From the NCBI GenBank assembly GCA_964584035.1, contig CAZOYL010000040.1, positions 1-19,475 of the forward strand: a stretch of DNA of 19,475 nucleotides, in the 5' to 3' direction. The notes under the pieces are model-generated. The model was not told the origin of the DNA, did not search any database, and worked only from the letters and a program-made list of their open reading frames with translations. Source of the stretch: an uncultured Gemmatimonadota bacterium. Its GTDB lineage: Bacteria; SM23-81. This document shows, in pieces, positions 74 to 19,475 of this stretch. The translations under genes and the position numbers were made by a program. The stretch's first letter is position 1; every line of letters begins with the position of its first letter.

Positions 74-754
74 ATGTTCCGAAGAACGAGACCCATGAAG
101 CTCTTTCTCTCGATGTGTCTGAGCCTGTGGCTTTGTCTGTTCATCGGCTCACGGGTTCATGCCTACCAGGATGGCGATTGGCAGTTTTGGAATTCCAGCA
201 GTCTGGAGGGAAATGTCCATACGAAGTGGAAACTCAGGTTTGAAGAGCAATTTCGAATCGGCCGGGATGTCTCTGAACTTTTTTATCATCAGACCGGCAT
301 TGGACTGACCTGGAAAACGACCAAATGGTTTCAGGCCGCGGTGACGTATGCTCAGGTGTATGAATTGAAAAAGGGTGACTGGAAAGAGGAAAACCGTCCA
401 TCCGCCGATGGAACATTACAGCGGGAATGGAGGGGCGTTCAGCTCTCCGATCGAAATCGGCTGGAGCTCCGCATTCGTGAAGAAACTGAGAACATTTGGC
501 GGTACCGAAACAATCTCACCTTTTCCCCGGCCAAGAAAGTGTCTCCTCTTCATATACAGCCATACATGAGCGCTGAGATATTCGTCGACATTGAGCAGGA
601 AGATCTCAATCAGTACCGCCTCACGGGAGGTCTCAAGGGCCAATTGATCGATGTTCTCCAGGCCAGCCTGTACTATCTCCGCCAGGGGAAAGAGAAGGAT
701 GGAGATTGGACCGCCTGTCATGTCCTTGGAGCCACGATCAGGGTGCGTCTGTGA
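74..754 (+). CDS. DUF2490-like outer-membrane beta-barrel protein
   Basis: N-terminal signal-peptide-like stretch ending VHA-YQ. Amphipathic strands with motifs typical of DUF2490 (LRFEEQFR, EENRP, RNRLELR, WRYRN, PYMSAEIF, NQYRL). GGAAGGGA upstream; alternative start at ATG 95. Confidence 0.75.
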   Translation: MFRRTRPMKLFLSMCLSLWLCLFIGSRVHAYQDGDWQFWNSSSLEGNVHTKWKLRFEEQFRIGRDVSELFYHQTGIGLTWKTTKWFQAAVTYAQVYELKKGDWKEENRPSADGTLQREWRGVQLSDRNRLELRIREETENIWRYRNNLTFSPAKKVSPLHIQPYMSAEIFVDIEQEDLNQYRLTGGLKGQLIDVLQASLYYLRQGKEKDGDWTACHVLGATIRVRL

Positions 755-775: not shown

Positions 776-2770
776 ATGCTGCGTTTGTCGTTGAGAGCTA
801 AGCTGATATTCAGTTTTTCTGCGGTCATCGTGGTGGGCGTTTTCCTGGCGGTCTTGGTCGGCATTCACTTCATCGGCGACACCATTATCCGGCAGACACA
901 GGACAAGGTGCGGTTGGATCTCAACTCGGCCCGGGAGGTGTACCAGGAAGAGAGCGGCCAGATAAGGGACGTGGTTCGCTTGACCGCCGTCAGGTTCTTT
1001 ATCAAAGATGCCATGGCGAAAGGCGACAGAAACGTCTTGAGCCGGGAGCTGCAGAAGATCAGACAAGAAGAGAATCTCGACGTCCTCAACCTGGTCGATG
1101 AGAGCTGCCGAGTCATCGTCAGGACCAGCAGGCCGGAGCTATACGGAGACGATATCATAGAGGATGCGGTGATCGAGAGGGCCTTGTCGCGCGGAGACGT
1201 TGCCGTGTCGACCGAGCTGATCTCCCGGGAACAGTTGGAGAAAAACGGCGACGATTTAGCCAAAAAGGCGGCCATCATGCTGGTTCCCACTCCAAAGGCC
1301 AGACCGAGATCGGAGACGGAGGAAACTTCAGGGATGATGATCGCAGCGGCCGCCCCCATCTTCGGATACGATGGAACCCTGCTTGGAGTGCTTTATGGCG
1401 GAAAGCTATTGAATAGAAATTACCAGATCGTTGATAAGGTGAAAGATATCGTCTATCGCGGTGAGCGATACAAGGAGAAGGACATAGGGACGGTCACCAT
1501 TTTTCAGGGAGACCTGCGTGTGACCACAAATGTGATGCGCTCCGAGGGCACTCGGGCCATCGGCACCAGAGTGTCACAGGAGGTCTACGATCAGGTCATC
1601 GGTCAGGGACAGCCCTGGATCGGGCGGGCCTTCGTCGTCAATGATTGGTACATCACCGCCTATGAGACCATCAAGGATATCAATGGTAACATCATCGGAA
1701 TGCTCTATGTGGGTATGCTGGAAGCGCCATATGTGGATATGAAAAATAGAGTTGTGCTCACATTTCTGGGAATCGCCCTGCTCTGCGTGGCACTGTTGAC
1801 CGTCATTGCCTGCATCACGTCGACCAGCATCGTCAATCCCCTGAAAGAGCTTCTCCATGCGACCCAGAGGGTAGCTCATGGAGATCTCGACCACCGGCTG
1901 CAGGTCACATCGCAAGATGAGATCGGGCACCTGGGAAGATCGTTCAATCGCATGACCGAAGAGCTTCAAAAAGCCACCGAGAGCTACCGCGCTCTGATGA
2001 GCACCCTGGAGGATAAGGTCAGAGAAAAGACCGAGGAGCTGCGCCAGGCGCAGGATCAACTGGTGCAATCGGAGAAATTGACCTCTCTGGGAAAGTTCGC
2101 GGCCGGCATTGCCCATGAAGTGAACAATCCTCTGACCTCGATACTGATCAACAGCCATCTGGTCGCCGAGAGGCTGGAACAGGACGATCGGCTTCAGGAG
2201 CATCTCAAACTGATCGTCGATGAAACCGCCCGCTGCGGGACCATCGTCAAGGGGTTGTTGGATTTTTCCCGCCAGACGCCGCCCCGGAAGGTGCGCACCG
2301 ATATCAACGAAGTGGTGGAGAGAACGCTGCGGCTGTTGAAGAGCCAGATCATCTTGCAGAAAGTGGAAGTGGAGACACGGCTTGAAAAGGACCTGCCGGA
2401 GCTGCAGATCGATGTCAATCAAATGCAGCAGGTGTTCGCCAATCTGATCCTCAATGCCCTGGATGCCATGCCGGGAGGCGGCCGGTTGACCTTCCGGACC
2501 CGGAAGCTGGCCGACGCTGAACGGGTCGAGGTGAGCATCGCCGATACGGGACGAGGCATCTCAAAAGAGCATTTGGGGAAGGTCTTCGACCCTTTTTTCA
2601 CCACCAAGGGAACGGCCGGGACCGGGCTGGGGCTGTCGGTGAGCTATGGTATCGTGCGCCGTCATGGCGGCACCATAGAGGTAAACAGCGAGGAGGGAAG
2701 AGGGACTGCTATGATCATCCGTCTGCCGGTGGAGAAGGCAGGTAAACCATCTGCCAAGCGAGGTGATTGA
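776..2770 (+). CDS. Membrane sensor histidine kinase (periplasmic Cache, HAMP, HisKA, HATPase_c; NtrB-like core)
   Basis: Two TM segments flank a periplasmic region with the Cache-type motif TIFQGDLRVTTNV...RAIGT. HAMP (NPLKEL...DEIGHLGRSFNRM), H-box AGIAHEVNNPL, N-box QVFANLILNALDAM, G1 DTGRG, F-box FDPFFTTK, G2 GTGLGL. GGAG at 765-768. Confidence 0.95.
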   Translation: MLRLSLRAKLIFSFSAVIVVGVFLAVLVGIHFIGDTIIRQTQDKVRLDLNSAREVYQEESGQIRDVVRLTAVRFFIKDAMAKGDRNVLSRELQKIRQEENLDVLNLVDESCRVIVRTSRPELYGDDIIEDAVIERALSRGDVAVSTELISREQLEKNGDDLAKKAAIMLVPTPKARPRSETEETSGMMIAAAAPIFGYDGTLLGVLYGGKLLNRNYQIVDKVKDIVYRGERYKEKDIGTVTIFQGDLRVTTNVMRSEGTRAIGTRVSQEVYDQVIGQGQPWIGRAFVVNDWYITAYETIKDINGNIIGMLYVGMLEAPYVDMKNRVVLTFLGIALLCVALLTVIACITSTSIVNPLKELLHATQRVAHGDLDHRLQVTSQDEIGHLGRSFNRMTEELQKATESYRALMSTLEDKVREKTEELRQAQDQLVQSEKLTSLGKFAAGIAHEVNNPLTSILINSHLVAERLEQDDRLQEHLKLIVDETARCGTIVKGLLDFSRQTPPRKVRTDINEVVERTLRLLKSQIILQKVEVETRLEKDLPELQIDVNQMQQVFANLILNALDAMPGGGRLTFRTRKLADAERVEVSIADTGRGISKEHLGKVFDPFFTTKGTAGTGLGLSVSYGIVRRHGGTIEVNSEEGRGTAMIIRLPVEKAGKPSAKRGD

Positions 2771-2772
2771 CC

Positions 2773-3564
2773 ATGGAATCAAAAGAAAAGATTCTGGTCG
2801 TCGATGACGAGCTGCCTGTCTGCAGGAGCATCGCCAGCGCCCTTGAGTCGGAGGGCTACCAGGTGGACACGGTCCAAAGCGGGGAGGAAGCATTGGAGCG
2901 GGAACGCGGGACCGGTTACGATGTGTTCCTGGTGGACCTGATGATGCCCGGCATGAGCGGCATGGAGGTCTTGGAAGCTGTCATGGAGCGGAAGCCCAAA
3001 CCGGTGGTGATCATGATTACGGGATACCCGACCATGAAAACGGCCGTCCAGGCGGTCAAGATGGGAGCGTTCGATTATCTGCCAAAGCCTTTTACACCGA
3101 AAGAATTGCGGATTCTCGTCTCGCGAGGATTAGGCCAGCGCCGGCTTATGGAGCAGGCGGCTGCGGCCGGCCGGCCGCCGGGAGCTGAGGGCTCGTCCAT
3201 GACCAAAGACATTTACTGCATTCCGGGCCACTCCTGGGCTCGGGTGGAGGCGGACGGAAAGGTGCGTATCGGGGTTGAAGAGACCTTTCTGATCTCCCTT
3301 CACCAGGTCAGCTCGGTGGAATTCCCCTACGAAGGTGAGCGGCTGTCTCAGGGTGAGGCCTGTCTATGGCTGACGGACAAGCAGAACAATCTGCATCGCA
3401 TTTGGGCTCCTCTGAGCGGTCAGGTCGTTGCCATTCATACGGAGCTGAAGATGGATCCGTCGCAGATCCTGCGGGATCCCTACGGGTCCGGCTGGCTTTT
3501 GCTGCTCGAGCCCGAACGGTTGCAGGAAGATCTGGAAAATCTGGTGCCCTTACAACACCAGTAA
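2773..3564 (+). CDS. Response-regulator receiver fused to a glycine-cleavage-H (GcvH)-like domain
   Basis: REC motifs ILVVDDE, DLMMPGMSG (phospho-Asp), ITGY, YLPKPF. Ala/Pro linker. C-terminus has GcvH-like motifs HSWARVE, VRIGV, APLSGQVV, DPYGSGWL. ATG 2773 preferred over TTG 2767 because AGGTGA lies at 2761-2766. Confidence 0.85.
   Translation: MESKEKILVVDDELPVCRSIASALESEGYQVDTVQSGEEALERERGTGYDVFLVDLMMPGMSGMEVLEAVMERKPKPVVIMITGYPTMKTAVQAVKMGAFDYLPKPFTPKELRILVSRGLGQRRLMEQAAAAGRPPGAEGSSMTKDIYCIPGHSWARVEADGKVRIGVEETFLISLHQVSSVEFPYEGERLSQGEACLWLTDKQNNLHRIWAPLSGQVVAIHTELKMDPSQILRDPYGSGWLLLLEPERLQEDLENLVPLQHQ
2794..2813 (+). repeat. 20-nt exact repeat shared by the two receiver genes (copy 1)
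   Basis: CTGGTCGTCGATGACGAGCT at 2794-2813, identical to 3642-3661; reflects REC-domain paralogy. Confidence 0.8.
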
Positions 3565-3593
3565 GCGGCGCAGGGGCGGATGATGCACCGTTA

Positions 3594-3610
3594 CCGCATT
3601 GAGAATGCGG
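3594..3610. promoter_or_regulatory. 7-bp perfect inverted repeat abutting and overlapping the RBS of the single-domain regulator
   Basis: CCGCATT (3594-3600), GAG, AATGCGG (3604-3610). The last GG starts the GGAG Shine-Dalgarno-like element. Confidence 0.4.
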
Positions 3611-3620
3611 AGCCATGAAG

Positions 3621-4022
3621 ATGGACGAGAAAATTAAAATCCTGGTCGTCGATGACGAGCTTCCGGTGGGTAAAAGTATCTCACACGCTTTACGGGAAGA
3701 AGGCTATGATGTCGATATGGCGCTCAGCGGAGAGGAGGCGCTGCAACGGCTGCGCCAGTGCTCCTATGCCGTCATGGTCGCGGATCTGATGATGCCTGGC
3801 ATGAGCGGCATGGACCTTCTCTCCGCTGTGAAAGAAACGAACATGAACATCTCGGTCATCATCACCACAGGGTATCCGTCCACCAGGACGACCGTTCAAT
3901 CGATCAAGCTGGGAGCCTTCGATTACCTGCCCAAGCCCTTTGCACCAGGAGAGCTTCGAGCGATTGTAGCTCGGGCCCTGGAAAGGCGCCGGCCGGAAGA
4001 AAAAAGGAATCCTTCGGACTGA
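3621..4022 (+). CDS. Single-domain response regulator (receiver only)
   Basis: ILVVDDE, DLMMPGMSG, TTGY, YLPKPF with only a short charged tail. ATG 3621 preferred (GGAG 3609-3612, 8-nt spacing); ATG 3615 is in frame. Confidence 0.9.
   Translation: MDEKIKILVVDDELPVGKSISHALREEGYDVDMALSGEEALQRLRQCSYAVMVADLMMPGMSGMDLLSAVKETNMNISVIITTGYPSTRTTVQSIKLGAFDYLPKPFAPGELRAIVARALERRRPEEKRNPSD
3642..3661 (+). repeat. 20-nt exact repeat shared by the two receiver genes (copy 2)
   Basis: Identical to 2794-2813. Confidence 0.8.
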
Positions 4023-4032
4023 CCGCCCGCGT

Positions 4033-7000
4033 ATGCCGTTCAACCCAGGTGTGGCCATGAAACCTCCCGCTATCGACAGATGCATCCTGCAAACTCTCGA
4101 TCTGTTGAGAGGATTCGATCCCCGGACCGTCATGTTCTTAGACCGCCGGGGCCGGTGGACGAAAGGTCCCCAAACGGCCCGGGACCGGGTATCGAATGAG
4201 TTGTGGTTCTTTATCTGGCAGAGCCATCGCCAGGATGCCCGGCTTGAGGTTCTGCGGGATATCTTCGCGCCGTTCCTCGGCGATCCGACCGGCTGGGCGG
4301 TCACTGGGAAGATCTATCGCTGGCTCTGCTCGTCGGCTCCTCAGGATCCGGGTGAGGTGCTCCAGGTGGTGGAGGTGATCACGGCTCTCATCCAACATCG
4401 TGCCTGGCAAAGAAATGGGACGGCCTATCGGCCCGATTGGGATTCCAGAGGAAAAGCTCTGCGGGCCGGATATATGGAAAGAGCCCGGGCTTTCGCTGCG
4501 GGCCTGGAGGGATGCCTGGAGGGTGAATCTGAGCTGGCCCGCTGGCGCGAGATGTGGCCGCAGCTCATGGCCGCCGCGGGAGGATCGATCGACCGCCTGT
4601 GCGCCATCATCTCAGAGGAGGAGAGCATACGGGACCAGATCGAGACCGTCCTTCATGCTCTTTGGGCAGCGCGTCAAAAGGATCAAGCCCTGGCCCTGCT
4701 GGAAGAACAGGTTGGGCCCCTGTTGACCATGAGGCCGGCCCATCAGCAAGCGCTCTTGAGACCCTGCCTCGATCTGCTGACGCTTCCTCAGCTCGAGATG
4801 GTCAGCGGCCTGCCGTATGAGGTGACCGGCATCCTGGGGAAATTGCGTGATATCCGCTCTACGGAACATCTCCTCACCGTGCTGGAGAATTGCGCTCGGA
4901 AATACACTCAGGTAAGATGCAACGCCATTTACGCCCTGGGCCATTTCAGAGACAGGTCCGCCCTGCCGTATTTTCTTGAGGTTCTTACGGGACCCAACAG
5001 CACCGATGTTGACCTCTCCGGCCGGTCCTCCGGTTATTCGCTCTCTTTACGCGGTGAAAAGCGGGAATGCATCTGGGCTCTGGGCCGGCTGGGAGCCGAA
5101 GCCCTGGAGGCGATACCGGTCTTGGCCAGATACGGCCGCAATCCCGAACGGGATATCAGTGCTGTGTTAGCCTGGGCATTGGGGTGCATCGGGAAGGGGC
5201 AGAAGGAAACAAGTGGAGGGCTGGACGCCGCCCTGGTGACCAGCCTGCTGCAATTGCTGCAGGTCGACGACCACCTCGTTTTCGAGGAATCGGCCATGGC
5301 CATGAGGGGGCTGGGGCTGCCCGACTTCCTCCACCATCTCTATCTGCACGACTTCGCCACGGTGCCGATATTGTCTCTCAAACCGAGCAGCACCGGGTTG
5401 TACGAGCTGTCGGAGACGCTTTTTTACCTGATGTCGATGAGATCCCCGGTGGTCATGGCGGTCACCGGGGATTCCGGAACCGGAAAAACTTACTTCTGCG
5501 AGACTCTCATCGAAGGATTCGGCAGCCTGCGCCGGAAGGATATTCTCTATCTGCAGAGAGATCGCCCCGGCCATATGATGATCTTGAACAGGATCCTCGG
5601 TCTCAGATGGCTGCGCGATCATGTGGCCCCTCAACATTATGAAAATTACCCTCTGGCCGAAGACCGGGACGATCCGGACCTGTTCTTTGGACAATTTATG
5701 CAGCAGCATTCCCGGAGAAAATTGATCATCCTGGATGGCTGGAGAGATTCGGATTACTTTCATGAGGTGATCCGGCGCTTCTATGAATACGGACATCTCG
5801 ATGTGCTGGTGAAGTTTCATAGCACCTATTCGACCAAACGGCTCAATCTCGAGGAGCGCGAGGGAACGCTGGAGCGCGTCACGGCCCATCTGCCGCTGGT
5901 AGAAGATCCGGCCATCGAGGAGACCGATTTCTATCGCGAGGGAGCCGTGCTGCTGTATCAGCTCGACAACTCTATATCCTCACGCTTGAATGATCATGAG
6001 ATCAGAGAGGTTTTCCGGCGGAAGAAGGTCGCTGCCTGGGGCCAGACCGTTCATATCGGAGAACTGCTGCACCGGGCCGAGCGGGTAGATGCTCAGGAGT
6101 CGCTGCTGGCATCTTGCCGGGAAAAGAGCACTTTAAAAAAGAAAATTCTGAGAGCGAAGGAGACGATCCCCTTCACGCCCCGGGAGACGGCTTTCCGGAG
6201 AATATTGAACGAACAGCCCGAGCGGGATCAGAACCTGCTTCAGGACATCGATCTGGACGGCGGCGACATTCGGCGAATCGGGTTCTTCACTCAGGGGCAG
6301 GTTGCCTATGGGGATGCGAATGGGGCCATCGGTATTCTGTCCGGTTTTCAGGACAGGAATTTCTCAACCGACGTTCATGAGCAGCCGGTCAGGTGTCTGG
6401 CGGTCACCGGGGGGGCCATTCTCTCGTCGGACACGGTCGGCGAATTGAAGGAAACATGCTTTCGTAAAAAGGAGATAACGGTATGGCCGGCCGGCCCTTC
6501 TCCCATTTGCTCGCTGGCCTGTGGACGGGATGGTCTTGTGGCCATGGGGCACGAGGATGGAACCGTTCGACTGTGGGATCGAACAGCTCAGGAGATGTAT
6601 GCGCTCGGCAGCCATGCCGATCAGGTTCGAGCCCTGGCCATCGGCCGCAAGGGAGCCGTTTTCTCGGGAGACGCGGCGGGTGAGATGCATCTGTGGGATC
6701 TAAGGAAGGGGACCAAGAGCGTCTTCAGAAGCCCGGGCCATTCTATTCAGGCCGTTGAGATGTGTCCTGATGGCAGATGGGTGATCGCCCAACAGGTCCC
6801 GGAGCCGATGGATGAGACGGCCCGGAAGGAGCAGGCGGCCATCTGGATTTTGGACCCTGAGAGCGGCCGCCGTGAGGTCTTTGACCTCAAGGTGAACGCC
6901 CGGATCAAGGCCCTGAAGGTCTATTTCGACGGCCGGATATTTATAGGATTAGGCGGCCGCCGGCCTGTTTCTGCCGGACACACGCTTCTGGTCATCGATC

Positions 7001-7224
7001 CCCGGCCGAAGCGGCCGCAGATTTTTTCCCTTCCCGGGCACGGGCTGGAAACCACCGATTGCCTCACGATGGGACCCCGCATCATCACCTGCGGTCGGGA
7101 GGAAGGCGGGCCGGGAACCCTGCGCATATGGGGAGGCCTATCGTATATCAAATCCGAGTTGAAGAAATCCGCGCTCTTGCCGGACCATATGGAGAAACCG
7201 CCCTATTGCCGGACCATCTTCTGA
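4033..7224 (+). CDS. Large multidomain protein: unknown N-terminus, HEAT/PBS-lyase-like repeats, P-loop NTPase/kinase domain, WD40-like beta-propeller
   Basis: HEAT-like repeats VRCNAIYALGHFRDRSALPYFLEVL, RECIWALGRLGAEALEAIPVL, LAWALGCIG (about 4910-5320). Walker A VTGDSGTGKT (5461-5490), Walker-B-like LIILDG (5722-5739). WD repeats GHEDGTVRLWD and HADQVRALAI...GEMHLWD (about 6250-7140). Alternative start ATG 4057. Confidence 0.8.
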   Translation: MPFNPGVAMKPPAIDRCILQTLDLLRGFDPRTVMFLDRRGRWTKGPQTARDRVSNELWFFIWQSHRQDARLEVLRDIFAPFLGDPTGWAVTGKIYRWLCSSAPQDPGEVLQVVEVITALIQHRAWQRNGTAYRPDWDSRGKALRAGYMERARAFAAGLEGCLEGESELARWREMWPQLMAAAGGSIDRLCAIISEEESIRDQIETVLHALWAARQKDQALALLEEQVGPLLTMRPAHQQALLRPCLDLLTLPQLEMVSGLPYEVTGILGKLRDIRSTEHLLTVLENCARKYTQVRCNAIYALGHFRDRSALPYFLEVLTGPNSTDVDLSGRSSGYSLSLRGEKRECIWALGRLGAEALEAIPVLARYGRNPERDISAVLAWALGCIGKGQKETSGGLDAALVTSLLQLLQVDDHLVFEESAMAMRGLGLPDFLHHLYLHDFATVPILSLKPSSTGLYELSETLFYLMSMRSPVVMAVTGDSGTGKTYFCETLIEGFGSLRRKDILYLQRDRPGHMMILNRILGLRWLRDHVAPQHYENYPLAEDRDDPDLFFGQFMQQHSRRKLIILDGWRDSDYFHEVIRRFYEYGHLDVLVKFHSTYSTKRLNLEEREGTLERVTAHLPLVEDPAIEETDFYREGAVLLYQLDNSISSRLNDHEIREVFRRKKVAAWGQTVHIGELLHRAERVDAQESLLASCREKSTLKKKILRAKETIPFTPRETAFRRILNEQPERDQNLLQDIDLDGGDIRRIGFFTQGQVAYGDANGAIGILSGFQDRNFSTDVHEQPVRCLAVTGGAILSSDTVGELKETCFRKKEITVWPAGPSPICSLACGRDGLVAMGHEDGTVRLWDRTAQEMYALGSHADQVRALAIGRKGAVFSGDAAGEMHLWDLRKGTKSVFRSPGHSIQAVEMCPDGRWVIAQQVPEPMDETARKEQAAIWILDPESGRREVFDLKVNARIKALKVYFDGRIFIGLGGRRPVSAGHTLLVIDPRPKRPQIFSLPGHGLETTDCLTMGPRIITCGREEGGPGTLRIWGGLSYIKSELKKSALLPDHMEKPPYCRTIF

Positions 7225-7447: not shown

Positions 7448-7888
7448 ATGATAGAATGTATCCATATCAGACCGTTCCGCATGGAGGATTACGATGCCGT
7501 GGTGTCTCTGTGGAAGCGGTCGCGGCTGCCGTATAAACCAGCCGGCCGGGATGCCCGGGAACGGATCGCCCGGGAGCTGGAGGGCGCCGGCGCCGTTTTT
7601 CTGGTGGCCGAACACGGGGGCCAGGTGGTCGGCACGGTCTTTGCCACCCACGACGGGCGAAAGGGATGGATTAATCGGCTGGCGGTGATGCCGGCCTCCC
7701 GCCGGCAGGGTGTTGCCGCCAGGCTGGTGAAGGAGGCCGAACACCGGCTGGCGGAAGCGGGCATTCAGATCGTGGCCTGTCTCATCGAGGACGGCAACGC
7801 CGATTCCAAAGAATTTTTTCAGAGCATTGGCTATCAGCGGTTCGACGAAATCAGTTATTTCACCAAGAAACAGCACCCCGAGGTCTGA
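7448..7888 (+). CDS. GNAT-family N-acetyltransferase (YpeA-like)
   Basis: IRPFRMEDYDAVVSLW, VFLVAE, HDGRKGWINRLAV, acetyl-CoA motif RRQGVA, N...FFQSIGY. Confidence 0.9.
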   Translation: MIECIHIRPFRMEDYDAVVSLWKRSRLPYKPAGRDARERIARELEGAGAVFLVAEHGGQVVGTVFATHDGRKGWINRLAVMPASRRQGVAARLVKEAEHRLAEAGIQIVACLIEDGNADSKEFFQSIGYQRFDEISYFTKKQHPEV

Positions 7889-11508: not shown

Positions 11509-11793
11509 ATGCCGGAGCCGGTCCATGTGGAGGGGTCCAACGCCGATCACAAGGTCATGTTGTTCGCCCTGAGCACCTGCGGGTGGTGCCGGCGGACCAA
11601 GAAGCTGCTGGAAACGCTGGATGTGGCCTACGAGTACATCGATGTCGATCAGCTGGTGGGCGAGGAAAAGGAACGAGTCCGGGAGGAGATCACCCGCTGG
11701 AACCCGGCCTGTTCCTTTCCCACCCTGGTGATCGACGATGACCGCTGCCTCGTGGGCTACCGGGAGCAGGAGATCCGGGAGGTGCTGGGATGA
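11509..11793 (+). CDS. Glutaredoxin-like (NrdH-type) redoxin
   Basis: STCGWC active site, cis-Pro motif SFPT, VGY tail, 94 aa, GAGGAG upstream. Confidence 0.88.
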   Translation: MPEPVHVEGSNADHKVMLFALSTCGWCRRTKKLLETLDVAYEYIDVDQLVGEEKERVREEITRWNPACSFPTLVIDDDRCLVGYREQEIREVLG

Positions 11794-12326
11794 AAGAGAT
11801 GGAAGTGACCGAGGAAGAGATACAGCGGGCCTACGAGAAGCTGAACAAGGATGTCCAGGCCGGGGGCTATCACCTCAATCCCGATGAGGAGTTCGTCCGT
11901 GACCTGATCCGGGGCATGCTGGTCAATGAGCAGCGCTACGGCTACGGGTCCTGCCCCTGCCGGCTGGCCTCCGGGGTCAAACAGGAGGATGTGGACATCA
12001 TCTGCCCCTGCGACTACCGAGATGCGGACCTGGACGAGCACGGAGCCTGCTATTGTGCCCTGTATGTCACCCGGGAGGTGTTGGACGGCAAGCGTCAGGT
12101 GGGCTCCATCCAGGAGCGGCGGCCGCCGCTGGAGGAGCGCCGTAAGGCCGCGGCCGGGGCGTCGAAGTCTGCCCCCGGAGAGGCCGGGCCGGCGGCCGGT
12201 CCTGGAGCGCTGCCCCTGCCGGTGTGGCGCTGTAGAGTCTGCGGCTATTTGTGCGCCCGGGAGGGCCCGCCGGAGGTCTGTCCGGTGTGCAAGGCCAAGA
12301 GGGAGAGGTTTGAGCGGTTTATGTAA
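11790..12326 (+). CDS. Ferredoxin:thioredoxin-reductase catalytic-subunit homologue with C-terminal rubredoxin-like domain (ferredoxin:disulfide/glutaredoxin reductase)
   Basis: FTR motifs CPCR, CPCDY, CYC. C-terminal WRCRVCGY...PEVCPVC. ATGA overlap with the glutaredoxin stop. Confidence 0.9.
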   Translation: MKEMEVTEEEIQRAYEKLNKDVQAGGYHLNPDEEFVRDLIRGMLVNEQRYGYGSCPCRLASGVKQEDVDIICPCDYRDADLDEHGACYCALYVTREVLDGKRQVGSIQERRPPLEERRKAAAGASKSAPGEAGPAAGPGALPLPVWRCRVCGYLCAREGPPEVCPVCKAKRERFERFM

Positions 12327-12403: not shown

Positions 12404-13573
12404 TCACCAGCTCCACCGCATCTGGGCCAGCAGAGTGGTCCCGTTATCGCCGAACTCGGTTCCGGGACTCCCGCCGAAGAGCAAACCGGTGAGGATCACA
12501 TCCAGGTCGGTCAGGGCGTTCCAGGTGACGGCGGGGCCGGCATACCGGGAACCGTCGGTCGGGTTCACAATGCCGGCCAGACTGGCAGAGACCAGTGGAT
12601 GAAGCTGGCGGGCCGCCTCGGCGAACAGCGACCAGCGCGCCGGGGTGAGGCGGTGGTCTTGCAGTGCCCGTATCAGATGCAACCCTCCCGCATCTCCGGT
12701 GGTCCCTTGGCTGCCGTACAGCGCTTCACCATGCAGGTAGAGAGAGGATTTGAAGGCATAATCGCCCGACAGGACGGCGGTCAGATCGGGGTGTTCTGAT
12801 GCCCCATCCTCCTCTGACGAAAAACGCTCCAGCAGCTCGCCGCGGAAGCCACCTCCCCTGATGTGCCCGGCCCAGGCGAATCCGGCCACCCACTCCTTGG
12901 CCCGGCGTCCCCCCAGGAAGTGCCAGTCATATTCCCAGCGGTTCAGGACCAGCTGAGCCACGGCGATGGAATTCTCTTCCGGTTCCTGCAGCGCTGCGGC
13001 GATCTCGAATCTGGAAGCGGGACCGAGGTAGTACTGGACGCGGAGACCATCGGCTCCCGGTTTCTCGACATTGGCGAAATCCAGCGGCGAGGAAGGGTTG
13101 AACAGGTCGGTCGGGTTCCAGATCAGCGTCGTGCCCCAGGCGATGCGCTGGCGGCCGAGCGTGATCTGCAGGTCTCCTATGTATGCAGCGATCCAAAGGC
13201 GATCGATCTTCCCCGCCAGGACGATCTTCTCTTCCTCGACAAAGGTCCGCTGCCAGTCGAAGTAGGGCTCCTCGAAGCGGTAGGCCTCCGAAGCACCCGG
13301 CACGAGGCCGGCCGATTCGCCAAGCAATAATCGCTCATCGACCTCCACCGCGACCGTGATCTGGTGGCCGGGGTACCACCTCAGGTTCTGCCGGGCCAGC
13401 GTCCGGCTGTCCAGCCGCCACTCCCGGCCGGCGGCCAGAGGCGGAGAGAGCTCCCACAGCAGCGGCATCTCGATGACATAGCCCCGCAGCGACCATTCGG
13501 AGGCGACGCCATCCGATCCCATGAGGCAGAGGACCAGCAGGCAGATGGTGAACGCCATCCGCCGGACGATCAC
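12404..13573 (-). CDS. Uncharacterised exported protein, predicted outer-membrane beta-barrel linked to the ABC system
   Basis: Signal peptide (MIVRRMAFTICLLVLCLMGSDGVA), amphipathic strands, motif IDRLW...LGRQRIAWG...NPTDLFNP...EKPGADG, aromatic C-terminus QMRWSW. GTG start overlaps the ATPase stop. Confidence 0.7.
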   Translation of the reverse strand: MIVRRMAFTICLLVLCLMGSDGVASEWSLRGYVIEMPLLWELSPPLAAGREWRLDSRTLARQNLRWYPGHQITVAVEVDERLLLGESAGLVPGASEAYRFEEPYFDWQRTFVEEEKIVLAGKIDRLWIAAYIGDLQITLGRQRIAWGTTLIWNPTDLFNPSSPLDFANVEKPGADGLRVQYYLGPASRFEIAAALQEPEENSIAVAQLVLNRWEYDWHFLGGRRAKEWVAGFAWAGHIRGGGFRGELLERFSSEEDGASEHPDLTAVLSGDYAFKSSLYLHGEALYGSQGTTGDAGGLHLIRALQDHRLTPARWSLFAEAARQLHPLVSASLAGIVNPTDGSRYAGPAVTWNALTDLDVILTGLLFGGSPGTEFGDNGTTLLAQMRWSW

Positions 13574-17595: not shown

Positions 17596-17672
17596 GAGTA
17601 TCTTATTGTTCCCTTTTTGTCGTACAGGAAGCCGTCCTTATTTTATCTTTCTGTTTGCTTCTGTCCCGGCCT

Positions 17673-18851
17673 TTATTTCTCTCTCACATCACTCTCGTAG
17701 ATCCGATACGTTTTATAGATCTTGCCCCCCATCAGCTCCATGGCCCGCTTCATCATCTCATTGTCCTCCAGGATCCAGGACATCTCCCCCCAGGTGTAGC
17801 CTCTTTTTTCCCCGGCGTCCCAGGTCTTGACATAAAAGACCGCGTCGATGCCCCGGCGCTGGTACTCGTGCACCACTCCCATGACCAGGATGCGGGGATG
17901 GTCGATCCGTCGCGAGTGCCACAGCAGTTTGAGGATCCCGAAGGGGAACAGGCGGCCGTTGAGGTGTTTCAGGGCCTGGTTGTAATCCGGCAGGGTCAGC
18001 GAGAATCCGGCCGGCCGGCCGTTGACCTCTGCGAACAGGACCAGCTCGGGGACGATCAGGGGCTTGAGCTGTTTGGCCAGGTGATCGAACTCCGCCTCGG
18101 TCATGGGCACGAAGCCCCAGTTTTTACTCCAGGCATTGTTGTAGATGACCTTGATCCGTTTCAACTCGTTGTCGAAGTCCTTCATGTCGATCGGACGGAT
18201 GGTCAACCCTTCCTTCTGTTCGATCTTGGCGGCCATGCGCCGCAGCCGCTCCGGAAGGCCCTCCTCGATGATCATCCGGTAGGCATAGAGGTCTTTGGCC
18301 TTGGTCAGCCCATAGCCCTCCAGGAGCCCGGGGTAGTAAGGCGGGTTGTAGGGCATCATCAGCACCGGGCTCATGTCGAACCCCTGGACCAGCAATCCCC
18401 ACTCGTCATTGGAGGAAAAATTGGCCGGCCCGCGGAAGGTCTCCATGCCCCGCTGGCGCAGCCACTCCCGGGCGGCACCGAGGAGTTTTCCGGCCGCCTC
18501 CGGGTCGTTGACGCATTCGAAGAACCCGAAAAAACCGGTCCGCTCGTCGTGGAACTCGTTGTGGGCATGGTTGACCACGGCGGCGATGCGGCCGACCGGG
18601 CGGTCTCCGCGATCGGCCAGGAACAGCTGTATGTCAGCGTGCTCGTAAAAGGGATTTTTCCGGGGGTCGAAGGTCTCTTTCAGTTGACCGATGAGGGGCG
18701 GGACCCAGTGGGGATCGCCGCGATAGATCTTCCAGGGGAATTTGATGAATGCCCGCCGCTGCCACCGGGAGGTCACCGGCCGGATGCGGATCTCCGGGGG
18801 ATTCCGGCGGAGGTTCATGGGATAGAGATCATCTGTCAGCGGTATCGGCAT
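17673..18851 (-). CDS. Tandem-GNAT acyltransferase of the YghO / bacterial ceramide synthase (bCerS)-like family
   Basis: FIKFPWKIY..DPHWVPPL, GRIAA, FGFFEC, GP.NFSSNDEWGLLVQGFD, MMPYNPPYY, YNNAWSKNWGFVP, PDYNQ, GV..EYQRRG, EMSWILEDN. Lies directly downstream of an SPT-like gene. Alternative start ATG 18818. Confidence 0.78.
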   Translation of the reverse strand: MPIPLTDDLYPMNLRRNPPEIRIRPVTSRWQRRAFIKFPWKIYRGDPHWVPPLIGQLKETFDPRKNPFYEHADIQLFLADRGDRPVGRIAAVVNHAHNEFHDERTGFFGFFECVNDPEAAGKLLGAAREWLRQRGMETFRGPANFSSNDEWGLLVQGFDMSPVLMMPYNPPYYPGLLEGYGLTKAKDLYAYRMIIEEGLPERLRRMAAKIEQKEGLTIRPIDMKDFDNELKRIKVIYNNAWSKNWGFVPMTEAEFDHLAKQLKPLIVPELVLFAEVNGRPAGFSLTLPDYNQALKHLNGRLFPFGILKLLWHSRRIDHPRILVMGVVHEYQRRGIDAVFYVKTWDAGEKRGYTWGEMSWILEDNEMMKRAMELMGGKIYKTYRIYESDVREK

Positions 18852-18873
18852 GAGCCGGCGTCCTCGGCGTCGA

Positions 18874-19475
18874 TCAGGGGATGATGTCCATCTCCTTGCC
18901 CACCCGGCGGAAGATCTCCAGAACCGTGTCCAGCTCCTCGTCGGTGTGAGTGGCCATGTAGCTGGTCCGGATCAGGGCCTGGCCGGGGGGCACCGCCGGG
19001 GTGATCACCGGGTTGGAGAAGATGCCGTTCTCGAACAGGGTCTTCCAGAAATAGAAGGTCTTGACGTCCTCGCCGATGACGACCGGGATAATGGGCGTGC
19101 AGCTGGTGCCGGTGTTATAGCCCATGGCCTGAAAGCCGGTGCGCATTTTCTCCGTGTTTTTCCACAGCTTTTCGCGCCGCTTGGGCTCGGCCCTGATGAT
19201 CTCCAGGGCGGCCCGCACAGCGGCCACGGCGGCCGGCGGCATGCTGGCGCTGAAGATCAGAGCCCGGCCGTGGTGCTTGACGAAATCGATGACGTCGAAG
19301 TCGGCGGCGATGAATCCCCCGATGGAGACGAAGGACTTGCTGAAGGTGCCCATGACGATGTCGACCTCGTCCTGGAGGCCGAAATGGGCGGCGGTGCCGT
19401 TGCCCTGCGGGCCCAGCACGCCCACCGAGTGGGCGTCGTCCACCATCAGGCGGCAGCCGTACTTGTTTTTCAGCT
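18874..19475 (-). CDS. PLP-dependent alpha-oxoamine synthase, serine-palmitoyltransferase-like (5' end outside the window)
   Basis: Frame stays open to the window edge (LKNKYGCRL-MVDDAHS). DDAH motif, PLP-lysine motif GTFSKSFVSIGG (GTFSKS at 19333-19350), FSASMPP, PAVPPG..LIRTSYMATH. Family is clear; SPT versus BioF/Kbl is inferred from the motif and context. Confidence 0.85.
   Translation of the reverse strand, partial: LKNKYGCRLMVDDAHSVGVLGPQGNGTAAHFGLQDEVDIVMGTFSKSFVSIGGFIAADFDVIDFVKHHGRALIFSASMPPAAVAAVRAALEIIRAEPKRREKLWKNTEKMRTGFQAMGYNTGTSCTPIIPVVIGEDVKTFYFWKTLFENGIFSNPVITPAVPPGQALIRTSYMATHTDEELDTVLEIFRRVGKEMDIIP

Follow-up and report, generated by a model that had tools for sequence, protein, structure and literature searches.

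Here, we analyzed a 19,475-nucleotide (nt) stretch of DNA (hereafter the window) from an uncultured Gemmatimonadota bacterium of the SM23-81 lineage (GenBank assembly GCA_964584035.1, contig CAZOYL010000040.1, forward strand), and focused on a gene for a protein of 1063 amino acids (aa) (P0001, hereafter the large protein) and on the two-component genes upstream of it. The window carries, in this order, genes for a DUF2490 protein, a Cache-HAMP histidine kinase, a response regulator in which a receiver domain (REC) is joined to a GcvH-like domain, a regulator with REC only, and the large protein, and these genes overlap or are separated by gaps of 10–50 base pairs (bp) (Table 1). The organisms that hold the large protein (Aminicenantes, Zixibacteria, WOR-3, and others) are known from metagenomes only, and in these uncultured sediment bacteria it probably represents a new kind of non-transcriptional signaling output.

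The open reading frame (ORF) of the large protein was taken from a six-frame list and translates without stops; its start probably lies at ATG 4057 (M9), since AGGTG stands 6 nt upstream of this codon, the starts of homologs coincide with M9, and the database copy has 1055 aa. The initial annotation of the window had raised the concern that the ORF could be an assembly chimera, which it is not: contigs from four other salt-marsh DNA runs (at least 95% identity) tile positions 2767–7224 and span the REC/ORF, HEAT/P-loop, and P-loop/WD40 junctions, and the relatives described below are full-length. The 21 runs listed for this region included none of RNA. The gene is single-copy in its own genome.

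All features that the initial annotation had read in the large protein are present, namely an unrecognized N-terminus, HEAT repeats, VVMAVTGDSGTGKT (aa 473–486), LIILDG (aa 564–569), and a propeller, and the distance from K485 to D568 is 83 residues (initially given as about 85 aa). An AlphaFold2 (AF2) model of aa 1–275 has a pLDDT of 93.0 and a pTM of 0.91 and is all-helical apart from a small hairpin. Foldseek found no match for the N-terminal domain (N-domain) among solved structures in the PDB (best E 0.34), and VIA-align (wide) gave no match with Z of at least 8 for aa 1–275, its matches being confined to aa 186–275 (HEAT proteins, Z ≤ 7.8); we therefore describe aa 1–185 as having no recognized fold and place a solenoid at about aa 186–440. 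No Pfam or NCBIfam family covers aa 1–270, and the best look-alikes in the ESM Atlas (0.76 for aa 1–240 and 0.81 for aa 432–700) are below the informative level. The solenoid is of the HEAT/armadillo (ARM) type, with Pfam thresholds passed around aa 279–322 by HEAT_PBS (35.8 bits; cut-off 20.9) and HEAT_2 (31.5 bits; cut-off 27.7), and with matches of designed armadillo proteins to aa 284–464 (E about 1e-5). The C-terminal region, from about aa 733, is seven-blade-sized and is identified as a WD40 beta-propeller by its match to PF00400 (31.2 bits; cut-off 27) and to the solved WD40 protein 2ymu_A (E 1.6e-27, 12 matched stretches). Behind the propeller, the tail that ends in KPPYxRTxF (aa 1041–1063) is common to the window's group of proteins, and Aminicenantes-type members stop ~13 residues earlier.

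Table 1 Features of the two-component cassette in the window, with the gene inserted in the cassettes of other loci (positions preceded by the locus)
Feature	Position	Strand	Basis or remark
Sensor histidine kinase (dCache_3/sCache_3_3, HAMP, HisKA, HATPase_c)	776–2770	+	Pfam; stop overlaps the start of the next gene
Response regulator P0122, REC and GcvH-like domain	2767–3564	+	Pfam; without lipoyl lysine
REC-only response regulator P0123	3615–4022	+	Pfam; paralog of the P0122 REC domain
Large protein P0001	4033–7224	+	Likelier true start ATG 4057, giving 1055 aa
N-domain, aa 1–185	4033–4587	+	Helices and a small hairpin in the AF2 model; no recognized fold
Predicted HEAT/ARM-like alpha-solenoid, aa 186–440	4588–5352	+	HEAT_PBS, HEAT_2, and armadillo matches
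Lead-in helix (aa 441–470, LKPSSxGLYELSET) and orphan P-loop domain (aa 471–680)	5353–6072	+	Conservation, AF2, fold matches
Walker A, G479–T486	5467–5490	+	Invariant columns
Walker B, L564–G569	5722–5739	+	Invariant columns
Linker, aa 681–735	6073–6237	+	Poorly conserved; pLDDT low where the model ends
Predicted WD40 beta-propeller (aa 736–1040) and C-terminal tail (aa 1041–1063)	6238–7221	+	Pfam, 2ymu_A
Inserted acetyl-CoA hydrolase/transferase	L006:5527–6822, L008:4868–6166, L010:5749–7080, L048:3391–4695, L003:1–618		

Conservation was counted as alignment columns at least 95% conserved across 65 sequences. They make up 60 of the 210 columns of the P-loop domain and 7 of the 30 of the lead-in helix, next to 14 of 165 in the HEAT part, 6 of 305 in the WD40 part, 3 of 185 in the N-domain, and 3 of 55 in the linker. 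Invariant in the family are G479–T486, R509–D510, D568–G569, D572, Y575–F576, S600, R603, N605–E607, R609, N646–S647, and R651. The P-loop domain is thus by far the most constrained part of the protein, and its invariant Walker A and Walker B motifs, together with ~12 polar residues, make up a pattern typical of an active site.

A word-indexed search found 284 proteins related to the large protein at E ≤ 1e-3. Among the 120 matches listed, 117 cover 96–100% of it at 33–72% identity (~1011–1178 aa), while the remaining three are shorter and seemingly partial. Source annotations call these relatives hypothetical, HEAT, or WD40 repeat proteins, and the architecture, first described as unfamiliar, is indeed uncharacterized. 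One genome per species was used for the locus set, yielding 98 confirmed loci of which 80 were kept. Most of them are Aminicenantes/Acidobacteriota by record title, and the others include Zixibacteria, Eisenbacteria, Stahlbacteria, Gemmatimonadota, WOR-3, and Edwardsbacteria, with a few labels that look doubtful. For example, the titles of L009 and L065, and of many loci labeled "Eubacteriales" (Heimdallarchaeota archaeon; uncultured Eubacteriales), do not match their cassettes, which resemble those of bacterial candidate phyla or Aminicenantes, and these are likely mislabeled or contaminated metagenome-assembled genomes (MAGs). The large protein was found in 3 of 7 species genomes of the window's own phylum, and in 1 of 3 within one genus. 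Possible broken copies of the gene were also seen, one with a single TGA inside the match (G094:C4:47286–47933) and one (L046:7848–10402) split into ORFs of 598 and 269 aa, without upstream kinase or regulator.

Gene context provides the strongest evidence in this analysis. An ORF with a GcvH-like domain lies directly upstream of the large gene, on the same strand, in 69 of the 71 loci with at least 900 bp of upstream DNA; the two misses are a Stahlbacteria MAG (L004), in which the gene next to the large one is REC-only, as it is in the window, and L046, in which the large gene looks broken. The sensor part of the kinase was likewise found upstream and on the same strand in 54 of the 56 loci with at least 3200 bp of upstream DNA (misses, L046 and L059). 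These counts bear out the early suggestion that the large protein belongs with the upstream phosphorelay. No other conserved neighbor was found up- or downstream, the next largest cluster being present in 17 of the 80 loci. The cassettes of Aminicenantes are flanked by housekeeping genes (Rrf2, DPP-IV-type peptidase, Ham1, UbiA, topoisomerase, and XerC-type recombinase), and a XerC-type integrase cluster occurs in 13 loci, several kilobases off in the representative locus.

This linkage is asymmetric. We sampled 151 genomes of the Aminicenantes class that holds locus L022, using E ≤ 1e-20 for the large-protein domain and E ≤ 1e-30 for the GcvH-like domain, and found the large protein in 19, the regulator in 23, and both in 18, such that the large protein stood alone once (at a contig edge) and the regulator alone five times. 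At the five regulator-only loci, a related kinase gene adjoins the regulator in three (L136, L138, and L140) and the large gene adjoins it in none. From this co-occurrence and these loci, it follows that the large protein depends on the phosphorelay and not the reverse, which fits an optional downstream effector.

The upstream genes themselves form a two-component system, with a kinase that carries HisKA and HATPase_c domains and a REC domain that keeps the acidic pocket, the phospho-accepting Asp, the Thr, and the Lys (D13, D14, D57, T85, and K107, invariant in 33 regulator sequences). The kinase is 54–64% identical among the 12 best-matching loci listed, whose titles name several phyla. Regulator P0122 matches Response_reg (E 2.1e-29) and GCV_H (E 6.5e-15, 55.6 bits; cut-off 22.2) in Pfam, and its GcvH-like domain matches solved bacterial GcvH chains at E 2.8e-14 to 2.3e-12. 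At N207, however, this domain departs from the Lys of the V-K-T motif in 1onl with which it aligns and which we take to be the lipoylated residue; the column holds G (21), N (13), K (11), Q (5), R (4), and others in 65 regulator sequences. Conserved instead are C199 (59 of 65), D204 (54 of 65), H210 (51 of 65, the other 14 being Tyr), R211 (55 of 65), and W213 (65 of 65). The C-terminal domain of the regulator thus reads as an H-protein fold that serves as an output domain, not as a lipoyl carrier. Given an intact phospho-acceptor REC and no DNA-binding output recognized by Pfam, the output of the regulator must act on a protein or a ligand. A complex prediction for aa 200–1063 of the large protein with aa 140–265 of the regulator returned a score of 0.00 (mark, 0.32), which speaks neither for nor against binding. 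The REC-only regulator P0123 is 60% identical to P0122 over 126 aa, and the window's copy seems to have lost a GcvH-like domain, since the closest loci (L001, positions 4531–5370, and L002) have a second full REC-GcvH gene at its position. A DUF2490 gene (window positions 74–754) ahead of the kinase is peculiar to the window and its two closest loci, L001 and L002 (Zixibacteria SM23_81, two paralogous cassettes).

For the P-loop domain, AF2 modeled aa 432–700 (pLDDT 76.3) as a core of five strands, in which helices are inserted between strands 2 and 3 and a lid of low confidence connects strands 4 and 5, i.e., the layout of a P-loop kinase as far as a model of this confidence can be read. Foldseek on this model returned P-loop kinases in 36 of the 38 rows listed (adenylate, thymidylate, gluconate, uridine-cytidine, phosphoribulo-, and dephospho-CoA kinases), with a best E of 3.9e-5 and TM values of 0.37–0.47. 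VIA-align ranked Clp1 first (4ohw, Z 9.1, root-mean-square deviation 3.1 over 134 aligned residues), followed by Grc3 (6of2_B, Z 8.9), yeast Clp1 (4c0b_B, Z 8.5), and the AtTTM1 kinase domain (Z 8.4); below these stood SIMIBI NTPases, BY-kinases, and other kinases, with the next unrelated rows at Z 7.7. We limit the claim to the fold class because these Z values lie near the chance level stated for VIA-align. The few ASCE-type proteins recognized in the fold lists (such as T7 gp4 helicase, LlaBIII, Rad5, and Pex1/Pex6) had Z ≤ 6.5 or a Foldseek probability of 0.54. After the last strand, the model holds only two helices (residues 223–229 and 238–241 in model numbering) and then no regular structure, and no STAND-type helical or winged-helix arm (ARC1/ARC2 or HD1-WHD-HD2) was found in it between core and repeats. 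The central region of the large protein is thus predicted to be an orphan P-loop domain with a kinase-like fold.

Sequence searches placed this domain less closely. In an exhaustive HMMER search, a profile of the domain found 71 matches at E ≤ 1e-3 (59 at E ≤ 1e-30) among 1.84 billion representative proteins; 44 of the 71 are proteins of 994–1073 aa with the domain at about residues 375–725, the others are shorter proteins that match in part, or weak matches, and neither another architecture with the domain nor another family within the reach of HMMER was found in this set. A PDB profile search with the domain alignment gave nothing below E 0.019, and Pfam and NCBIfam gave no more than sub-threshold P-loop matches for aa 470–590, including the phosphoribulokinase (PRK) and uridine kinase models. 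When 40 domain sequences were scanned against Pfam with weak hits kept, AAA_18, which we take to be an AK6/Fap7-type kinase family, matched 40 of 40 (best E 1.7e-8), NACHT 37 (best E 5.8e-4), PRK 27 (best E 8.3e-3), NB-ARC 13, and nSTAND3 11, and CLP1_P was absent from the 25 most frequent families. The window's own member scored 12.6 bits against PF00485 (cut-off 22), over the P-loop only, and 14.0 bits against NACHT (E 0.044; cut-off 26.7); in whole-genome searches, PF00485 matched three other places and none in the window, and NACHT likewise left the window unmatched.

A comparison by hhalign with nine uridine kinases from related genomes gave a probability of 95.1% (E 3e-8) over 139 colinear columns, pairing the P-loops, D510 with the kinases' conserved Asp, the Walker B motifs, and the lid segments (RRxxxxxR/STRRLNLEERE). 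Controls reached 18.7% for adenylate kinase (ADK), 76.3% over 66 columns for CoaE, and 95.9% over 42 P-loop columns for a NACHT/AAA mix. Once the P-loop was removed, nothing was significant: the uridine kinases (Udk) fell to 1.5% (P 0.034), next to P values of 0.041 for the mix, 0.13 for CoaE, and 0.25 for ADK. Membership in the uridine kinase/PRK family is unestablished because the likeness vanishes with the P-loop, and we dropped the assignment that the 95% probability had suggested. Of the initial view that the P-loop is of a kinase type near uridine kinase and PRK rather than of the NACHT type, the kinase part is thus backed by the predicted fold (the Foldseek rows and the Clp1, Grc3, and TTM1 matches) and by the missing STAND arm, while the uridine kinase/PRK likeness is confined to the P-loop.

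We favor, with moderate confidence, a reading in which the large protein is the dedicated, NTP-dependent (nucleoside triphosphate-dependent) cytoplasmic effector of a conserved two-component pathway that does not act on transcription, and receives its signal from the Cache kinase by way of the REC-GcvH-like regulator. What we observed are the architecture, the pattern of conservation, the class of the predicted fold, and the linkage of the genes with its asymmetry; the contact, the catalysis, and the direction of signaling are what we infer. The Cache-HAMP kinase would sense an extracytoplasmic ligand and phosphorylate the response regulator, whose output would be the lipoyl-less GcvH-like domain and not a DNA-binding domain, and the REC-GcvH-like regulator, here possibly also its REC-only paralog, would then act on the large protein. 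There, the orphan P-loop core, apparently intact for catalysis, may use NTP for the phosphorylation of a substrate or for a conformational switch, while the HEAT solenoid, the WD40 propeller, and the N-domain may hold the regulator and the substrate or partners.

Several observations weigh against this effector reading. The fold matches are weak (TM 0.35–0.47, and Z ~9 as compared with Z 7–8 for chance best hits), sequence places the core in no kinase family once the P-loop is removed, and sub-threshold NACHT and AAA matches are as frequent as PRK matches. In addition, the patchy presence of the large protein in the window's phylum and genus implies that it is dispensable, and the regulator occurs without it in 5 of 23 regulator-positive genomes, so the large protein cannot be the regulator's only output, and one or more further targets of the regulator must exist.

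A possible, though on balance rather unlikely, alternative is that the large protein is a nucleotide-gated scaffold, in which the P-loop would bind or slowly hydrolyze NTP as a switch and the phosphorelay would control the assembly of partners on the surfaces of the HEAT and WD40 parts, with no phosphotransfer. A scaffold would suit the two large repeat domains, both of a protein-binding kind, on either side of the P-loop. In addition, SIMIBI-type switch NTPases (FlhF, SRP/FtsY, MinD/ParA, and GPN-loop) account for a large share of the VIA-align matches, at Z 6.8–7.7, and none of the substrate-binding motifs of known kinase families was recognized. However, Foldseek ranked small-molecule kinases first, and the invariant Asp after strand 2 (R509–D510) and the invariant Arg residues of the lid segment (R603 and R609) are usual in phosphotransferases.

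We consider it unlikely that the large protein instead acts on the phosphorelay itself, either as a cytoplasmic co-sensor or by controlling the phosphorylation of the response regulator, much as auxiliary third components of two-component systems do. Its tight linkage with kinase and regulator and the extra REC-only gene that adjoins it upstream, both in the window and in L004, agree with such a role, and helical-repeat proteins that bind REC domains are known, e.g., Rap phosphatases. On the other side, kinase and regulator persist without the large protein in 3 of the 5 regulator-only loci, although this fits an optional accessory and an optional output equally, and Pfam and NCBIfam scans of the large protein revealed no likeness to a known REC phosphatase.

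Doubtful to a slightly greater degree is a repeat-regulated small-molecule kinase of the uridine kinase/PRK/pantothenate kinase lineage, acting on a nucleoside, a sugar phosphate, or a CoA-related metabolite, possibly at the acetate/acetyl-CoA node; this reading is a special case of the effector reading in its kinase version, and the likelihoods of the two are not additive. Besides the 139 colinear columns shared with uridine kinases and the presence of PRK, UCK2, NRK1, and the TTM1 kinase domain among the fold matches, the gene content of some cassettes points this way. In five loci, a gene for an acetyl-CoA hydrolase/transferase (PF02550 and PF13336, ~432 aa) is inserted between kinase and regulator on the same strand (Table 1), and in the Stahlbacteria MAG (L004), a fusion of REC and acetate kinase (2922–4691, 590 aa) and a double-REC protein (4695–5507, 271 aa) are encoded directly upstream of the kinase. 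Two cassettes with kinase and regulator and without the large protein, L136 (G111:C49) and L140 (G203:C245), are preceded by ATP-grasp_5 and AAA_26-DRTGG genes, which we take to be typical of ADP-forming acyl-CoA synthetases and similar to the N-terminal part of Pta, respectively, and are followed by a gene for a SBP_bac_11 solute-binding protein. A 2-oxoacid:ferredoxin oxidoreductase is encoded near the cassette in the window and in L059. Such acetate or acyl-CoA genes occur near the cassette in 10 of 86 loci in all, and a lineage within this kinase group is further opposed by the sub-threshold PF00485 score, by the whole-genome PF00485 search that missed the large gene, by the non-significant similarity outside the P-loop, and by the uridine kinases' invariant N-x-D-x-P, which was not recognized by eye in the family consensus. 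We dropped the acetate/acyl-CoA theme as a general rule given this count, and regard the node as a suggestive physiological lead for the cassette. As an equally doubtful elaboration of the favored effector reading, one might imagine a hitherto unrecognized three-part machine of uncultured anaerobic sediment bacteria, in which a carboxylate- or nutrient-sensing Cache kinase would phosphorylate the regulator, the lipoyl-less H-protein domain of the regulator would dock onto the HEAT-kinase-WD40 enzyme, and this enzyme, with a P-loop phosphotransferase of a new lineage, would phosphorylate a metabolite or an enzyme of metabolism at the acetate/acetyl-CoA node.

Finally, a STAND/NLR-like antiphage or conflict sensor (Avs-like) that oligomerizes on ligand binding, the defense role proposed in the initial annotation, is very improbable: an NTPase followed by a C-terminal WD40 part is a STAND layout, the Walker B string IILDGWRD presumably resembles that of NACHT, weak NACHT, NB-ARC, and nSTAND3 matches recur among the 40 members scanned, and the distribution in the window's phylum is patchy, but no match reached threshold in Pfam or PADLOC (0 PADLOC families matched), few ASCE-type NTPases appear among the fold-search rows listed, strand 5 is followed by two short helices and a 55-aa variable linker with no arm, no effector domain was recognizable with Pfam, Foldseek, or VIA-align, and the gene is single-copy, flanked by housekeeping and no defense genes, and locked to a two-component system across phyla.

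The genes downstream of the large gene (GNAT, 2-oxoacid:ferredoxin oxidoreductase, AhpC, nitroreductase, glutaredoxin, and ferredoxin-thioredoxin reductase) were considered as parts of the system and rejected; homologs near the 80 loci were confined to the oxidoreductase in L059, with none for the others. The GNAT acetyltransferase ORF (window positions 7448–7888) lies between the large gene and the oxidoreductase genes and is not conserved in other loci. Further downstream, the catalytic chain of ferredoxin-thioredoxin reductase is fused to a rubredoxin-like domain (11790–12326); together with the genes for AhpC, nitroreductase, and glutaredoxin, it forms a redox cluster that follows the oxidoreductase. 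Four long ORFs have no Pfam family at E ≤ 0.001 (12404–13573 and 17673–18851 on the minus strand, 17655–18884 and 18850–19473 on the plus strand), and at 17.6–18.9 kb two long ORFs overlap on opposite strands, either of which may be the gene.

Compared with known systems, the parts are of known kinds (HEAT, P-loop NTPase, WD40, and two-component proteins), whereas the libraries and literature searched gave no description of the combination, of the P-loop lineage, of the N-domain, or of the REC-GcvH-like regulator. Pfam, NCBIfam, and PADLOC have no entry for any of these four, and among the papers listed by full-text literature searches, titles and opening parts of abstracts contained no description of a REC-GcvH regulator, of a bacterial HEAT/P-loop/WD40 protein, or of their pairing. 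This includes, as judged from its abstract, a preprint on the Lipocone superfamily, the sole listed paper with the term GcvH. Like the uridine kinase/PRK family (PF00485), the core has a GxSGxGKT Walker A, an Asp after strand 2, an hhhhDG Walker B, and, behind strand 4, a lid-like segment rich in Arg, and UCK2, PRK, and NRK1 are among the kinases that match its five strands as predicted; unlike that family, it falls below the Pfam threshold, has no significant similarity beyond the P-loop, and carries the conserved lead-in helix (aa 441–470) before strand 1, and we know of no PF00485 member that lies between HEAT and WD40 domains or is linked to a two-component system. Clp1 and Grc3 are polynucleotide 5'-kinases that act on RNA; they gave the best structural matches to the model, including the helix before the P-loop strand, and also have their core between other domains, but identity is 11–17%, the flanking domains are unrelated, and Z is only ~1 above the next rows, near chance level. 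With STAND/NLR proteins (NACHT and NB-ARC; Avs), the large protein shares a P-loop NTPase followed by WD40, the Walker B context, and weak sub-threshold Pfam matches, and differs in a predicted fold whose listed matches are mostly kinases and SIMIBI NTPases, with few of the ASCE type, and in having no arm or winged helix, PADLOC match, effector domain, or defense neighborhood.

Closest on the side of signaling are two-component systems with regulators that do not bind DNA (CheY-type or enzyme-output), with which the cassette shares a HisKA/HATPase_c kinase, a complete REC, and an output that presumably works through protein-protein contact; it differs from them in an output domain of the GcvH fold and in a fixed partner, the ~1050-aa HEAT/P-loop/WD40 protein. 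That domain in turn differs from the glycine-cleavage H protein (GcvH) in lacking the lipoyl Lys and in being fused to REC. Most two-component pathways end at DNA; here, a pathway that recurs across several candidate phyla has a repurposed H-protein domain on its regulator and a fixed multi-domain partner. If the core is an active phosphotransferase, it would define a kinase family of its own and give bacterial phosphorelays a novel output at the post-translational level, and the acetyl-CoA and acetate enzymes occasionally inserted in the cassette provide a testable lead to its physiological role. By analogy only, Vps15 and LRRK2/ROCO proteins likewise hold a catalytic or NTPase core between helical repeats and a C-terminal WD40 part; their core is presumably not homologous to the one described here, and they carry eukaryotic-type protein kinase and/or Ras-like GTPase domains. 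Should the three-part machine outlined above be real, the H-protein fold would be a signaling output domain, the P-loop domain would found a new kinase family, and the whole would be a bacterial, non-homologous counterpart of the repeat-flanked nutrient-signaling kinases of eukaryotes.

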